A DNA stretch of 64,000 nucleotides from a virus: IMG/VR virus record IMGVR_UViG_3300028786_000006, positions 32,001-96,000 of that record; one strand, given 5' to 3'. The notes under the pieces are model-generated. The model ran no database searches and had not been told where the DNA came from. It was given only the letters and a program-made list of their open reading frames with translations. How positions within the stretch are numbered: position 1 is the first letter of the stretch; every line of letters begins with the position of its first letter. Positions 10,581 to 59,023 of the stretch are shown here, piece by piece. Made by a program: the position numbers and the translations under genes.

Positions 10581-10604
10581 TCCTCCCCCTCCCTGGCGGG
10601 TCTC

Positions 10605-44956: not shown

Positions 44957-45054
44957 TCCTTCGGGCGCAAAGCCAACCGCCCCTGACGGCTATGGTTGGT
45001 GGAGGAACCCAGGTGGCCATCAGGGGCTACGCTGGGTGAGACCTCGAAGAAACA

Positions 45055-45090
45055 AAAGGGAGCCAGCGCAAGCTGACTCCCTTTTTCTTT
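45055..45090 (+). terminator. Intrinsic terminator, near-copy of the 1206 terminator
   Basis: AAAAGGGAGCCAGCGCAAGCTGACTCCCTTTTT. Confidence 0.85.
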
Positions 45091-45170
45091 GCCTGAATGG
45101 TTCTAGTTGAGCGAAACTAGCTCGCACCTAATTATTCACAGTATGGGTATCCACACCACAGGAATTCAGT

Positions 45171-48100
45171 ATGTCCGATATCGACACAAGTAACGCGCCC
45201 TACTACGATGATTTTGACGCGGACAAGGGATTCTTGCGAGTCCTGTTCCGCCCGAAGTCGGTCCAAGCGCGTGAGCTGACACAGGCTCAAACCATTCTGC
45301 AGGAACAGGTTAACCGCCTGGGCCGGCATCTGTTCACCGAGGGGGCTATGGTCATCCCTGGTGGTATTCGCATCAGCAGCCAGCAGGACTACGTCAAACT
45401 GACGTTTATCTCTGGCTCGGTGTATGACGACATCGTTGACCGCACCGACATGGTCGTGTCCTCTGTCGTAAGCGGCCTGACTGCCAAAGTCAAGAAGGTT
45501 ATCCCAGCCGAAGGCGAAGACCCACCGTCGATCTTCGTGGAGTACACCAACTCCGGCTCGGACAACATGACCAAGAAGTTCTCGGTCGGGGAAAGTCTGA
45601 AGTTCTCTATCACCGTGGACAGCGTCAACCAGAACATCGCGAACGCTCGTTCGGATGCAGTAGGCTTCGGCACCTGGGCTCAGGTAGCGGCCGGCGTTTA
45701 CTTCGTGCGCGGCTTCATGGTTCAGAACGCAGCCCAAGACGTGGTGGTGTCGAAGTACACCCAGGACTCGTCCAATCGTATCGGCTTCAATGTTGTCGAA
45801 AGTATCGTCACCGAAGACGACGACGACAGCCTGCTGTCGAACGCCCAGGGTACTCCCAACTTCAAAGCGCCGGGCGCTCATCGCCTGAAGATCGAACTGA
45901 AGCTGGCGACCGTGTCCACGGATTCGGCTGTCGACGACAATTTCATCGAGCTCGCTCGGGTCGAAGACGGTGAGACCAAGGAGCTGGTGGTTGACACCGA
46001 ATACGCTCAGCTGATGAAAACCCTGGCTCAGCGCACTTACGAAGAGTCTGGTGACTACAGCCTGGGCCAATACGATTTCGTGCTGCGTGAGCACATCAAG
46101 GACTCCACCCATCCGGATGGCGTGTTCTCTGATGACAAGGGCGGCGACGAGTCGAAATTCGTGTTCGGTGTCAAGCCGAGCATCTCGTATGTCAAGGGCT
46201 ACCGGGTTCAGAACATCGCGACTGATTACGTCCCTGTTGAGAAGGCCCGCGACACCAATTTTGTGAACAACGCCGTGAGCTCGGCGATCTACCAGAACTA
46301 CCTGATCATCACCGGCATTCACAGCTTGCCTCCGACCGACATCCGGAAGAAGATCAGCCTGCATGATGCCCCGATCGTAGCCGGCAACACCGCCGGTTCC
46401 ATCATCGGCACCGCCCGCGTTCGCGCCATCCAGTTCGTGGCCGCCGGTTCCATCAAGGTGTTCCTGACCGACATCAAGATGAACAGCGGTAAGACGTTTA
46501 GCCAAGTACAGGGTCTGCGTTATACCGATGCTTCCAGCCTGTTCGGTGCAACTGTTTCCAGTGCTTCCATGTACGGTAGCAACCAGAACACCATGCTGTT
46601 CCCGTTGCCTTACCCGGCGACCAAGTCCCTGAAGCGGGCCGGTGCATCTGACACCACCTACGCGGTGACCCGTCAATACACGGTGACCACCAACGCATCT
46701 GGCGTTGCAACGGTTTCTCTGTCGTCCAACGAAACCTTCTCGACGCCTAACCAGGTCGAGTACCTCCTCTCCGCTACCGGGGCGGCTAACACAGGCGGCG
46801 CAGTAGCTTGGGCCGAGGGTCTGTTTGTACTCAGTGGCAGCCCCGTAGGACGTTCGATCACCATCAACGCCGGTGTGGGTAACGCGAGCAAGACCTTCGT
46901 GGCGAACGTGGTGGTTATCAAGCAACAACCACTGGAGAAGACCAAGACCAAGACCGTCAAGGTCGACGTCGTCACATTCACAGCCGAAACGTTCAAGGCT
47001 CTGACGAAGTGTGATGGGTTCAAACTGAACTCGGTTATCAACGACGCCACCGGCGAAGTAGTGACCAACAGCTACAACTTCTTCAATGGTCAGACTGATA
47101 ACGGTTACCGGGTCTGTGAGTTGCGCAGCAAAAGCGGCGCGGTCACCGGCGTTTTCCAGGTCACCTACGAATACTTCGAACACAGCCTTGGCGACTTCTT
47201 CAGCGTCGACTCGTACTCGAACGTGAATTATCAGGACATCCCGACTTACATCTCGTCTTCTGGGGCAGCTTATGAACTCAGCGATTGCTTGGACTTCCGG
47301 GCTCTCTACGATGCTTCTGGTGAAATCACTTCGGTTACTTTCGCTGGTGACGTTATTCGCCCTAGCGATACTGTGCGTGTTGATGTTGAGTACTATCTTC
47401 CTCGGCGCGATAGTGTATATGTGTCTTCTGATGGCACTTTTGGCGTTGTCAAAGGCGTTCCTGGTGATGAACCAGTATACCCGGAAGTGCCAACGGACTC
47501 GATGAAGATTGCTGAGCTGACTATCTCAGCTTACACCTTCGACCCGCTCAACGTCATCGTCCGCTTGATCGACAACAAGCGCTACACCATGCGCGACATC
47601 GGCAAGCTGGAACGTCGGATCGAAAACCTCGAGTACTACACCACTCTGAGCGCCATCGAATCGAAGGTCAACAAGACCCAGATCATTGACCCGGTAACCG
47701 GTAATGACCGATTCAAAAACGGTTTCGCGACTGACGGTTTCAGCGACTTCCGCCTGTGCGACCTCGACAGCGAAGAGTTCATGTTTGCCCTTGACCTCGA
47801 CGCAACCGTAGGCCAACCGGCATTCAGCCAGTTCCCTGGCGATATGGAATTCGGGTCCGGGGCCAACCATGCGAAGGGCCTGGGCCTTGTGAGCAAGTCT
47901 TACACGCTCAAGAAGACCATCGAACAGCCGTACGCGACCCGCATGATCAACGTTAACCCGTTTGCAGTGTTCACATGGAACGGTTACGTGAGTCTGAACC
48001 CAGCGTCGGACTTCTGGAGGGACGTCTGGTACTTGCCGCCGGTCATGGTCAACCAAACGGTCGACAACCGGGGCGCGGCCGTACAGGGCACAGTGGTCAA

Positions 48101-49991
48101 CCAATGGCGGTCGAGCTGGAAGAATCGGGACCTGAACACCCTGACTACAGTGACCACGTTTTCCGAATCCACTTCGGTGAGTATCGCGGACAACTTCATA
48201 CAGAATGTGGTCTACACATTCATGCGGGCTATCGGTATCGCGTTTTCTGGTACGTGCCTGCGCCCGTTCACCCGAGTGTACCCGTTCTTCGAGGACAAAC
48301 CTGTTTCGGCCTTCTGTCGACCGGCCGGTGGTGCTAACGGCCAAGCCCTGGTCACTGACGGCTCCGGCGCAATCAATGGGGTGTTCTCGGTACCAAACAC
48401 TTCAGCGAACAACTTCCGGACAGGAACCAACGTGTTTCGCCTTACAGACCAGGCGGATGATTCTCGCAACCCTAATCTGCTGACCACATTTGCTCAGACC
48501 ACGCACGCATCTGGTGGTTCGATCGATTATCGGCAGCAGACCGTTACTTCCACCCGCATCCTGTCGTTTACTGAATCTTCGTCTCTGACCACGGTGTACC
48601 AGAAGGATCCAATCGCTCAGACTTTCTGGGTCACGTCTACCGGCGGCGAGTACCTCGCGGCGGTTGATATCTTCATGGCCACGAAGTCGAGCACGATTCC
48701 CCTGATCGTGGAACTGCGGACTGCGGAAAACGGTTACCCAGGCGGCGATGCCCTGCCGTTCGGTCGTAAGGTGTTACTGCCTTCTCAGGTCGCCGTCAGC
48801 GCTAACGGGATGACGCCAACCCGAGTGACGTTTGATGATTTGGTTTACTTGGAACCTGGGCGCGAGTATTCTATCGTTCTGATGGCGGACACCCAGGAGT
48901 ACAACGCTTGGATCTGTCAGATGGGTGAAACCGTGTTGGGTACTACCCGCTCAGTTTCGGCACAACCAAACCTGGGATCGTTCTTCGTGTCTCAGAACGG
49001 CACCACTTGGACCGCCAACCAGAACCAGGATATGAAGTTCACCTTCTACCGGGCGCTGTTTAATACTGACGACACGGTGGTGACCTTCAATAACACGGCT
49101 CCTGTTTACCGCCCGGCCAAAGGGTTTAACCCGATAGTGACTGTTTCGGGAAACAGCCGCATCGTGTTGTCCCAGGCTACACACGGTTTGAAAGCTGGTG
49201 ATACTTGCATCATTCGCGGTGCAGTCGGCGGTAACGGCTTCAGCTCGGCCCTCCTGAACAAGTCTCAGGTGGTTGAGAGCGTCTCTGGGGATGATGTCAC
49301 CATTAACCTTGGCACTCTAGCGACCGCGACGGGGAACATCGGAGGGGATGCCGTAGAGGTGCTCTCGTCCTACCCTTTCAGCTTGCTCTACGCCAACGTG
49401 AACCAGTTGATCCTGGACGGCACTTCGGTTGAGTGGAAGGTGGTCGCCAAGAACCAAAGCAACCGGGGGCTTTCATCGCCGTTCTCGTTTACACCGGGCG
49501 AAAACCATGGCATGGACGCAGAGTCAGTGATTCAGGTTGGTGGTGACCTTCAGATGACTGCAACGCTGAAGACCACCCGCGATAACCTGAGCCCAGTGAT
49601 CGACCTTGACGGCTTCACCGCCGCCCTGGTACAGCCTCGAATCAACACCGACGTGTCCAACCCGCTTTGCCGGTACGTCACCAAGGATGTGAAGTTCGAT
49701 ACCCCAAGCACCACCGCCAAGATGTATGTCGGTGCGTTGTTACCGGGCGCGACCACCATGAAGTTCTACTACAAGTTGATCAGCACCGGCAGCAGCGCGG
49801 CCAGTGGTACTTGGGTGGAGCTTGCACCTTCGGCTGGGATTGTGAACGACGATATCCGGTTCATGGAGTACACGTACAACCTGACTGGGGTCGGCTCATT
49901 CAGCGGCTTCAAAGTGAAGATCGTTCTGTTGGGTGATGACCCGACCAACGTTCCTAAGCTGTCAGACTTCAGAGCCATCGCTCTGGCGTAA
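45171..49991 (+). CDS. Large baseplate/virion protein (VrlC/DUF4815-like)
   Basis: PYYDDFD..K..RVLFRP..VQARELTQ.Q, APGAHR, RTYEESGDY, RYTMRDIGKLE.RI.NLEYYT.LS, DPIAQTF; TAATTA at 45129. Confidence 0.9.
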   Translation: MSDIDTSNAPYYDDFDADKGFLRVLFRPKSVQARELTQAQTILQEQVNRLGRHLFTEGAMVIPGGIRISSQQDYVKLTFISGSVYDDIVDRTDMVVSSVVSGLTAKVKKVIPAEGEDPPSIFVEYTNSGSDNMTKKFSVGESLKFSITVDSVNQNIANARSDAVGFGTWAQVAAGVYFVRGFMVQNAAQDVVVSKYTQDSSNRIGFNVVESIVTEDDDDSLLSNAQGTPNFKAPGAHRLKIELKLATVSTDSAVDDNFIELARVEDGETKELVVDTEYAQLMKTLAQRTYEESGDYSLGQYDFVLREHIKDSTHPDGVFSDDKGGDESKFVFGVKPSISYVKGYRVQNIATDYVPVEKARDTNFVNNAVSSAIYQNYLIITGIHSLPPTDIRKKISLHDAPIVAGNTAGSIIGTARVRAIQFVAAGSIKVFLTDIKMNSGKTFSQVQGLRYTDASSLFGATVSSASMYGSNQNTMLFPLPYPATKSLKRAGASDTTYAVTRQYTVTTNASGVATVSLSSNETFSTPNQVEYLLSATGAANTGGAVAWAEGLFVLSGSPVGRSITINAGVGNASKTFVANVVVIKQQPLEKTKTKTVKVDVVTFTAETFKALTKCDGFKLNSVINDATGEVVTNSYNFFNGQTDNGYRVCELRSKSGAVTGVFQVTYEYFEHSLGDFFSVDSYSNVNYQDIPTYISSSGAAYELSDCLDFRALYDASGEITSVTFAGDVIRPSDTVRVDVEYYLPRRDSVYVSSDGTFGVVKGVPGDEPVYPEVPTDSMKIAELTISAYTFDPLNVIVRLIDNKRYTMRDIGKLERRIENLEYYTTLSAIESKVNKTQIIDPVTGNDRFKNGFATDGFSDFRLCDLDSEEFMFALDLDATVGQPAFSQFPGDMEFGSGANHAKGLGLVSKSYTLKKTIEQPYATRMINVNPFAVFTWNGYVSLNPASDFWRDVWYLPPVMVNQTVDNRGAAVQGTVVNQWRSSWKNRDLNTLTTVTTFSESTSVSIADNFIQNVVYTFMRAIGIAFSGTCLRPFTRVYPFFEDKPVSAFCRPAGGANGQALVTDGSGAINGVFSVPNTSANNFRTGTNVFRLTDQADDSRNPNLLTTFAQTTHASGGSIDYRQQTVTSTRILSFTESSSLTTVYQKDPIAQTFWVTSTGGEYLAAVDIFMATKSSTIPLIVELRTAENGYPGGDALPFGRKVLLPSQVAVSANGMTPTRVTFDDLVYLEPGREYSIVLMADTQEYNAWICQMGETVLGTTRSVSAQPNLGSFFVSQNGTTWTANQNQDMKFTFYRALFNTDDTVVTFNNTAPVYRPAKGFNPIVTVSGNSRIVLSQATHGLKAGDTCIIRGAVGGNGFSSALLNKSQVVESVSGDDVTINLGTLATATGNIGGDAVEVLSSYPFSLLYANVNQLILDGTSVEWKVVAKNQSNRGLSSPFSFTPGENHGMDAESVIQVGGDLQMTATLKTTRDNLSPVIDLDGFTAALVQPRINTDVSNPLCRYVTKDVKFDTPSTTAKMYVGALLPGATTMKFYYKLISTGSSAASGTWVELAPSAGIVNDDIRFMEYTYNLTGVGSFSGFKVKIVLLGDDPTNVPKLSDFRAIALA
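47311..47505 (+). CDS. Candidate overprinted two-TM membrane protein in the +1 frame (alternative ATG 47272)
   Basis: Hydrophobic ORF coinciding with a local spike of T-ending codons in the host gene. Confidence 0.5.
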   Translation: MLLVKSLRLLSLVTLFALAILCVLMLSTIFLGAIVYMCLLMALLALSKAFLVMNQYTRKCQRTR

Positions 49992-58257: not shown

Positions 58258-58368
58258 CAGCCTAATCCTCTGAGTATAGAACGTCTCGGTTACTTACACT
58301 GGCCAACTTCCCCGTGCCCTTTAAGTATCCGTAGAGCAACCCCACCAACTTTCTTCAGGTTCCCTCCC

Positions 58369-58698
58369 ATGGTAACGATTCAAATCGTCCCCATCATCGC
58401 GTGGCTGTTTGTACTGGCCAAAAGTGTCAGAATTATCAGCCTCTGTAAGTGCAAGGTGAACCCGAAGCGCAAGGAAGCGGCTATCATTCTCACCAGCGCA
58501 ACGGCCGCCGTGTTTTCAATCGGCCTACAGCTTGACATCATGTTCAACGGCTCTCGATACCTCGACAGCGTTGTCATAAACCGAATGATGGTCGCAGTCT
58601 TCCTGTTGTTTGCGCTTTGGGATATCTTCATTCTGAAGTACATCACTGAGACTTCCAACATCTGCGTCAGACGAAAGGAAGCCCCCTGTGAGCACTGA
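58369..58698 (+). CDS. Three-TM membrane protein (lysis-associated?)
   Basis: Starts MVTIQIVPII after late promoter TAAGTA 58322; overlaps the holin start. Confidence 0.6.
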   Translation: MVTIQIVPIIAWLFVLAKSVRIISLCKCKVNPKRKEAAIILTSATAAVFSIGLQLDIMFNGSRYLDSVVINRMMVAVFLLFALWDIFILKYITETSNICVRRKEAPCEH

Positions 58699-59023
58699 AA
58701 CCTTGATTTTCGAACTTTCCGAGAAGGCGCAGCGCTACCTGTCGGTGGGCATCGTGTCGGCAATTGGTGGTATCGCCAGTTACCTGTACGAGCACGTGAA
58801 AGGTGAACGCGACTTCTCCTTCCTGTCGTTCCTGACCATGATCTTCCTGGCATTCTTCGTCGGTAACGTCCTGGGTGAGTTCATCCCCCACGACATGAAG
58901 TCGCGTGATGGAATCCTGATGGTCGCTGGCTTCTCGAGCTGGCCTATCCTGGACGCCCTCAAGTCCAACGGCAAAAAGATCGCCGAGGCCGTCTTCAGCC
59001 GTGTCCTCAAGATCTTCAAGTAA
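58688..59023 (+). CDS. Holin (LydA-like)
   Basis: GGIASYL..., three hydrophobic segments, AGFSS..ILD, basic C-terminus. Confidence 0.7.
   Translation: MSTETLIFELSEKAQRYLSVGIVSAIGGIASYLYEHVKGERDFSFLSFLTMIFLAFFVGNVLGEFIPHDMKSRDGILMVAGFSSWPILDALKSNGKKIAEAVFSRVLKIFK

Follow-up and report, generated by a model that had tools for sequence, protein, structure and literature searches.

Inside vriC, which encodes a structural protein in a large tailed phage, we identified a hidden open reading frame (ORF) of 77 codons in the +1 frame (47272..47505, plus strand) which, judged by sequence comparison, is an unannotated, deeply conserved overprinted membrane-protein gene. Codon-level comparisons showed that this predicted +1 frame evolves under purifying selection at the protein level and that, within a single phage clade, its initiation signal is conserved. 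The 77-aa ORF is very probably a real, translated gene. An earlier note, made from the letters of this DNA alone, had proposed a selected membrane-protein gene nested in vriC, and this prediction is now strongly supported by the lack of stop codons in relatives, by synonymous constraint, by a start codon with a Shine-Dalgarno (SD) sequence and by a T bias that depends on codon class. Unless stated otherwise, positions refer to the window, i.e. the whole 64,000-nucleotide stretch of DNA that was analysed.

Results

The window belongs to a phage genome of 162,341 bp that is Ackermannviridae-like, related to Pseudomonas phage Cygsa01 and equipped with morphogenesis genes of the T4 superfamily. 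Its host is probably a pseudomonad, as suggested by Cygsa01. The gene vriC (45171..49991, plus strand) represents the ancestral frame and encodes a VriC/VrlC-type DUF4815 protein of 1606 aa (PHROG 358/877, PF16075) that is 63.7% identical to its Cygsa01 counterpart and about 38-40% identical to VrlC of Ackermannviridae. It aligns with a solved DUF4815/ORF65 chain (PDB 9euf) and is thought to be baseplate-associated (PMC11721090). In Cygsa01 the 1606-aa vriC (L001, 6001-10821) is absent from the GenBank annotation, apparently because of a tRNA-Ala call inside the gene on the opposite strand, and the hidden ORF is likewise unlisted. The interval between the tail tube gene and vriC (44957-45170) spans only 214 bp with a strong hairpin at 45054-45085; in relatives this interval holds one to three minus-strand genes.

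The earlier note had pointed to a patch of vriC codons ending in T (T3 patch), and its counts were exact: between 47310 and 47468, 34 of 53 codons end in T and 3 in A, and from 47538 onwards 3 of 51 end in T. The gene-wide mean is 20% (317/1607). The patch reached a binomial p of 7.8e-11, compared with 3.2e-4 for the next best of 32,156 50-codon windows, and is the sole strong T3 outlier among the predicted genes of the genome. The +1 ORF from 47272 to 47505 is open and its 77-aa translation reads as previously given. Openness by itself is weak evidence because synonymous recoding often leaves the frame open (6-42%). Nevertheless, no other +1 stretch that all six distinct genomes of the clade keep open is as long (78 codons; next 42). 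The basic residue 61 and the stop codon are fixed by invariant codons of the main frame and are therefore no independent evidence.

Our comparison set comprised nine genomes (the phage studied here, Cygsa01 and seven metagenomic contigs), six of which are clearly distinct. Stops in the +1 frame of relatives had been named beforehand as the finding that would speak against a gene, and none was present across the nine clade genomes. All nine share the start (ATG or TTG) and an identical stop and have kept the T3 patch together with a run of 35-39 residues free of Asp, Glu, Lys and Arg; Cygsa01 carries the same patch and the same 77-codon ORF. The VriC proteins of the clade are 62-70% identical to ours, with fourfold sites 36-42% identical and thus near saturation, and the tree path to Cygsa01 amounts to 0.73 substitutions/site (VriC). 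The next relative, L092 (VriC 58%), has no T3 patch, no SD and stops in the +1 frame; it retains the ATG and the first 12 codons of this frame (vriC offset about 2092). The absence of the ORF from this sister genome may reflect loss or the ancestral state, both of which are compatible with the tree.

Of 122 other VriC homologs, none had a T3 excess at p<0.01, and in none did the core KD exceed 1.75. The hidden ORF has a narrower range than its host frame and is confined to one clade. Ten of the 122 distant homologs, all of Ackermannviridae type, have an open but polar +1 frame (about 70 codons in L086, L175-L177, L182, L184, L186, L187, L196 and L197). The region therefore seems predisposed to an open +1 frame, and the open polar frame may correspond to a pre-overlap state. 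A family-wide gene was ruled out: the enterobacterial Ackermannviridae often have an open frame, but one of polar character, and its start toggles between ATG and ACG in near-identical genomes. Since the feature is absent from the sister genome and the distant homologs, its distribution points to de novo overprinting.

Regarding initiation, the start at ATG 47311 favoured by the earlier note was not confirmed. This second in-frame ATG (47311..47313, plus strand) is kept in three of the six distinct genomes and is ACG in the other three; it has no SD (-2.5 kcal/mol) and is probably not the main start. The conserved start lies upstream at 47272 and is ATG in eight genomes and TTG in one (L091). 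The ATG is maintained through a TAT codon of vriC, while TAT makes up 12-38% of the Tyr codons in these genes; in L091 the VriC residue has switched to Phe, encoded by the rare TTT. The SD of the hidden gene (GGGG, 47262..47265, plus strand) falls on a GGG glycine codon in five of the six distinct genomes, and this codon is retained even though glycine is encoded by GGG in no more than 7-22% of cases in these genes. Two genomes show compensating changes of the SD: in L088, VriC has a Lys at this place and the DNA reads TAAGGA, and the strongest SD of all (-10.7 kcal/mol) belongs to L091, in which the start is the weaker TTG. Across the clade, SD energies at 47272 range from -4.7 to -10.7 kcal/mol, the median of the genome's predicted gene starts being -5.2. 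The description of this SD as weak was thus not supported, as the energies are within the range of the predicted starts. Moreover, seven off-frame start codons are conserved in vriC and only that at 47272 has an SD in all genomes.

The third position of a vriC codon is the second position of the +1 codon. In NCN codons, the choice of this base decides between Leu and Pro, Arg, His or Gln in the +1 frame, and in NGN codons T or C decides merely between Val and Ala, a swap of little consequence. Within the core of the ORF, NCN codons end in T in 43 of 46 cases and never in C or G, compared with 21% elsewhere (OR 54). NGN codons end in T in 18 of 46 cases, compared with 33% elsewhere (OR 1.3). 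The pattern was seen in each clade genome separately and not in L092. Enrichment of T in NCN but not in NGN codons argues for selection on the +1 protein and against an effect of base composition. As Gly and Arg codons are spared, a T-rich element, an imported tract or tuning of codon speed is unlikely.

Recoding with gene-wide codon usage matched the observed hydrophobicity at p <= 5e-5 in each genome. When the T content was matched as well, p values were 0.06-0.24 for extra hydrophobicity and 0.002-0.18 for avoidance of polar residues. This residual signal is modest, as expected, because T is the very means by which the frame becomes hydrophobic. Fourfold-site identity over the ORF was 0.77 versus 0.48 +/- 0.06, the highest of the gene, with a maximum of 0.62 elsewhere (10 pairs). 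In one pair, position 3 differed in 6/76 codons of the ORF versus 462/1530 (p 7e-6). Constraint at position 3 varied between pairs, from p 4e-6 to non-significant (L001/L091, p 0.55), and a cruder scan over all codons gave a mild dip at the ORF that is common to other windows. The lowest synonymous divergence of vriC lies over the ORF, which is the constraint that the earlier note had expected from a selected gene.

The predicted 77-aa protein begins with a polar or amphipathic N-terminus of 21-25 residues with Arg/Lys at positions 18-25. It is followed by an uncharged hydrophobic core (residues 22-60, 47335..47451, plus strand; 26-60 in the Cygsa01 subgroup) that may form one long or two short membrane helices, and by a basic C-terminal tail. 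The net charge across homologs is +5 to +9. The core has a mean KD of 2.1-2.5 in the clade and a hydrophobic moment of 0.02-0.17, i.e. it is uniformly hydrophobic and not amphipathic. Two non-overlapping segments of 17-19 residues gave favourable or near-neutral insertion estimates on an approximate energy scale. The N-in/C-in hairpin with two transmembrane (TM) segments suggested earlier fits the hydropathy and is plausible; AF2 returned a single long helix (pTM 0.45) and no hairpin. The features together suggest a location in the inner membrane.

No homologs of the protein were found in a set of 5.8 billion proteins or in the ESM Atlas, and there was no match in Pfam, PHROGs or NCBIfam, holin and antiholin families included. 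A tblastn search of phage sequences returned only the locus of Cygsa01 itself. Such an absence of homologs is as expected for a de novo gene. The lone match of an exhaustive profile search, P0124, was dismissed as a spurious tandem repeat. Besides, no likeness to the phage's own LydA-type holin was detected.

The motif YTAA[ATG]TA occurs at 11 sites in the genome, 10 of them 31-59 nt ahead of starts on the same strand. The genes that it precedes are mostly virion genes and include those for portal, scaffold, major head, head closure, sheath and hub lysozyme, vriC and the holin cassette, with sites at 10604, 22625, 29292, 32876, 33798, 38026, 41887, 45128 and 58321 and at genome position 115313. 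No site is found inside vriC. We infer that the motif is a T4-type late promoter. The copy upstream of vriC (45128..45134, plus strand), similar versions of which precede vriC in relatives, probably directs synthesis of the mRNA on which the hidden ORF lies, and the hidden gene would therefore be late.

The late motif at 58321 is followed by a 109-aa multi-TM protein (58369..58698, plus strand), with a homolog in Cygsa01 and a gene of likewise 109 aa at the equivalent place in L092. Directly downstream lies the conventional holin candidate, a LydA-family holin of 111 aa (58688..59023, plus strand; PF16083 above cut-off, E 2e-7; PHROG holin), 11 kb from the hidden ORF. This holin has homologs in phiW-14, RSP15, nACB2 and L092, all of which lack the hidden ORF; Klebsiella phage May and pf16 yielded no homolog. 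The holin homologs of Cygsa01, phiW-14, RSP15, nACB2 and SH-Ab 15599 are annotated only as hypothetical. A candidate cell-wall-hydrolase endolysin (genome 131094-131516, in the interval 130693-131516; 76% to the putative endolysin of Cygsa01) lies far from the holin and has no signal or N-terminal anchor. No Rz-family spanin was matched in the genome. Only one lipobox ORF is present (108 aa with an SD, genome G000 147185 onward), and no i-spanin-like gene is adjacent to it. As the earlier note had stated, the hidden protein does not fit an o-spanin: lipobox scans miss the ORF, its host gene encodes a DUF4815 protein and no Rz-family match was found in the genome. Its suggestion of a holin is weakened by the LydA-family holin, which is also present in relatives without the ORF.

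Discussion

We propose that ribosomes on the late vriC mRNA would start internally at the SD and ATG 47272 and translate the +1 frame. The product would be a 77-aa inner-membrane protein with an uncharged core of 35-39 residues and positive charge on both sides, probably folded as a tight hairpin with both ends inside. Synonymous positions of vriC would have been fixed as T because T is the middle base of the +1 codons for Leu, Ile, Phe and Met. In the weakest step of this scheme, the protein would act at the stage of lysis and tune or assist the older LydA-type holin/endolysin system, possibly as an antiholin, as a second holin-like subunit or as an Lcc6-like helper.

A lysis-stage accessory membrane factor is thus our tentative assignment, made by analogy and with a probability that we place somewhat below even. 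It is the simplest reading of a late, non-essential, small cationic membrane protein beside an existing holin. Since the LydA-type holin is older, the hidden gene would not be the sole holin; moreover, the sister genome and older relatives have the holin cassette but not the ORF, and their lysis thus does not depend on it. The late motif common to vriC and the holin cassette counts in favour of an accessory role in lysis, whereas the 11-kb distance to the holin, the single helix predicted by AF2 and the lack of likeness to holin families count against it.

Alternatively, the gene could encode a protein that, like the single-gene lysis proteins phiX174 E and levivirus Sgl, inhibits the envelope independently, or one that substitutes for spanins. 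We regard this as unlikely. Such a protein would target a host membrane enzyme or fill in for the spanins that the phage appears to lack, judging by the missing Rz-family match and by the lipobox ORF without an i-spanin-like partner. Its net charge of +5 to +9 would also fit. On the other hand, the phage already has a holin and a cell-wall hydrolase. Disruptin-type peptides are amphipathic, unlike the uniformly hydrophobic core described here. The mode of origin and the size class agree with those of E and Sgl proteins (PMC8227390, PMC7693330), and spanins were not found in the related phages May and Mutine either (PMC6509524, PMC6509533). Relatives without the ORF, however, also miss spanins.

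Less likely still is a late membrane protein for superinfection exclusion or receptor masking. T4 Imm has about 80 aa and two TM segments, and the hidden protein is similar in size and hydrophobic core. Exclusion functions are lineage-specific and easily lost, which fits the absence of the ORF from L092. However, no Pfam family was matched, Imm included, and exclusion genes are normally early, whereas the hidden gene has a late-type motif alone upstream.

It is improbable that the protein takes part in morphogenesis as a membrane anchor or chaperone for baseplate assembly that is co-expressed with VriC. The ORF is carried by the vriC mRNA itself, and assembly of the T4 baseplate hub employs membrane-associated helpers. 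Yet VriC homologs in 122 other sequences do without the ORF, and a newly arisen factor would more likely be accessory than obligatory for assembly.

We give even less weight to explanations without a protein, in which the patch would stem from an element at the DNA or RNA level, from tuning of vriC translation or from an ancient recombinant tract. A +1 frame that is open by chance is common, both in recoded sequences and in distant homologs (10/122), and T3 bias alone turns any +1 frame hydrophobic. But 93% of the Ser, Pro, Thr and Ala codons end in T while Gly and Arg codons are not enriched in T, and there is no excess of A. Both the start and the SD have been maintained, with compensatory changes. 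A recombinant tract, which the earlier note had considered as a possible refutation, was rejected in view of the codon-class specificity of the patch and its persistence where synonymous sites are saturated. No credible Rfam match and neither promoter nor terminator were found at the patch. An antisense gene was rejected as well: although the in-register minus frame is open, it lacks a start codon ahead of the patch, and the other minus frames and the +2 frame contain stops there. Programmed frameshifting, which would yield a truncated VriC of about 700 aa with a membrane anchor, is hardly credible: an SD-like element can stimulate +1 shifts, as in RF2, but a +1-frame stop two codons ahead of the start in seven of nine genomes argues against entry by frameshift, there is no conserved slippery site, and what is conserved is an ATG/TTG at initiation spacing from the SD.

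Tiny phages offer textbook cases of overprinted membrane-protein genes (phiX174 E, levivirus Sgl). Among the nested genes of large tailed phages, the well-known ones are mostly spanins encoded within the gene of their partner. A literature search gave no report of the vriC-embedded locus described here. The comparative support is unusually complete, as it combines a codon signature unique in the genome, a compensated ribosome-binding site, a sister genome without the gene and distant relatives whose open but polar frame may reflect the stage before the overlap. The broader idea, that a protein controlling lysis or attacking the envelope was born de novo in an essential baseplate gene of an uncompressed large tailed dsDNA phage, kept through deep divergence and missed by all gene callers, is possible but doubtful. 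If it is true and the protein supplies a missing step of envelope disruption or timing, lysis factors would gain a new class, and 'missing' lysis genes of other large phages could be sought with the codon-class T3 test. Related Ackermannviridae have been annotated with missing holins and spanins (PMC6509524, PMC6509533). Hidden late membrane genes bear on this gap, but the ORF itself is not conserved in those Ackermannviridae. The proposal is testable in the cultured phage Cygsa01 because a single silent base change in vriC abolishes the start codon.

Several known systems resemble the hidden gene in part. Class II holins, pinholins and two-TM antiholins share with it a length of about 70-80 aa and possibly also two TM segments, a basic cytoplasmic tail and late timing. 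They differ in that the hidden ORF has no profile match, no endolysin neighbour and no conserved dual start; it lies outside the lysis cassette, and whereas pinholins pair with SAR endolysins, the endolysin candidate here has no N-terminal anchor. With regard to exclusion proteins of the Imm type, there is no match in Pfam and the only motif upstream is of late type. A further parallel is offered by Lcc6 of LambdaSo and releasin gp25 of Mu, likewise small TM proteins, which are required in addition to a holin or in place of one (10.1101/2024.01.23.576932; PMC9239132). Lcc6 is a TM factor of 65 aa that is encoded away from the lysis cassette and acts at the holin step (10.1101/2024.01.23.576932). 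In contrast to the hidden ORF, both are stand-alone genes with one TM segment and serve SAR endolysins, while the endolysin candidate here has no anchor. The hidden protein does not match the releasin family (DUF2730), and the phage has a holin.

Lambda Rz1 is also a fully nested, out-of-frame and late expressed gene of a tailed dsDNA phage. However, Rz1 encodes a lipoprotein and is nested in the gene of its partner in the lysis cassette, whereas the hidden ORF is embedded in a baseplate gene and shows neither a signal-peptide/lipobox layout nor a periplasmic domain. Embedded TM lysis genes in the +1 frame are common in leviviruses (PMC7693330). The Sgl genes in rep (+1) are small SD-preceded TM ORFs in a large gene that are lineage-specific and without homologs, as in our case (PMC7693330). 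They belong to ssRNA phages without holin-endolysin systems and turn over fast, whereas the hidden ORF persists across about 0.7 substitutions/site of VriC. In phiX174, E is the only lysis gene of a 5-kb ssDNA genome under compression, whereas the phage studied here has 162 kb. E and Sgl proteins are sole lysis genes, and here a LydA-family holin and a cell-wall hydrolase are present. The uncharged core of the hidden protein is about twice that of E, and no sequence similarity was found. Nevertheless, the E gene of phiX174, too, is a de novo overprint in the +1 frame that lies entirely within a morphogenesis gene expressed late (D), and in both cases T at the third codon position of the old frame gives rise to a Leu-rich TM sequence when read in the new one (PMC8227390).
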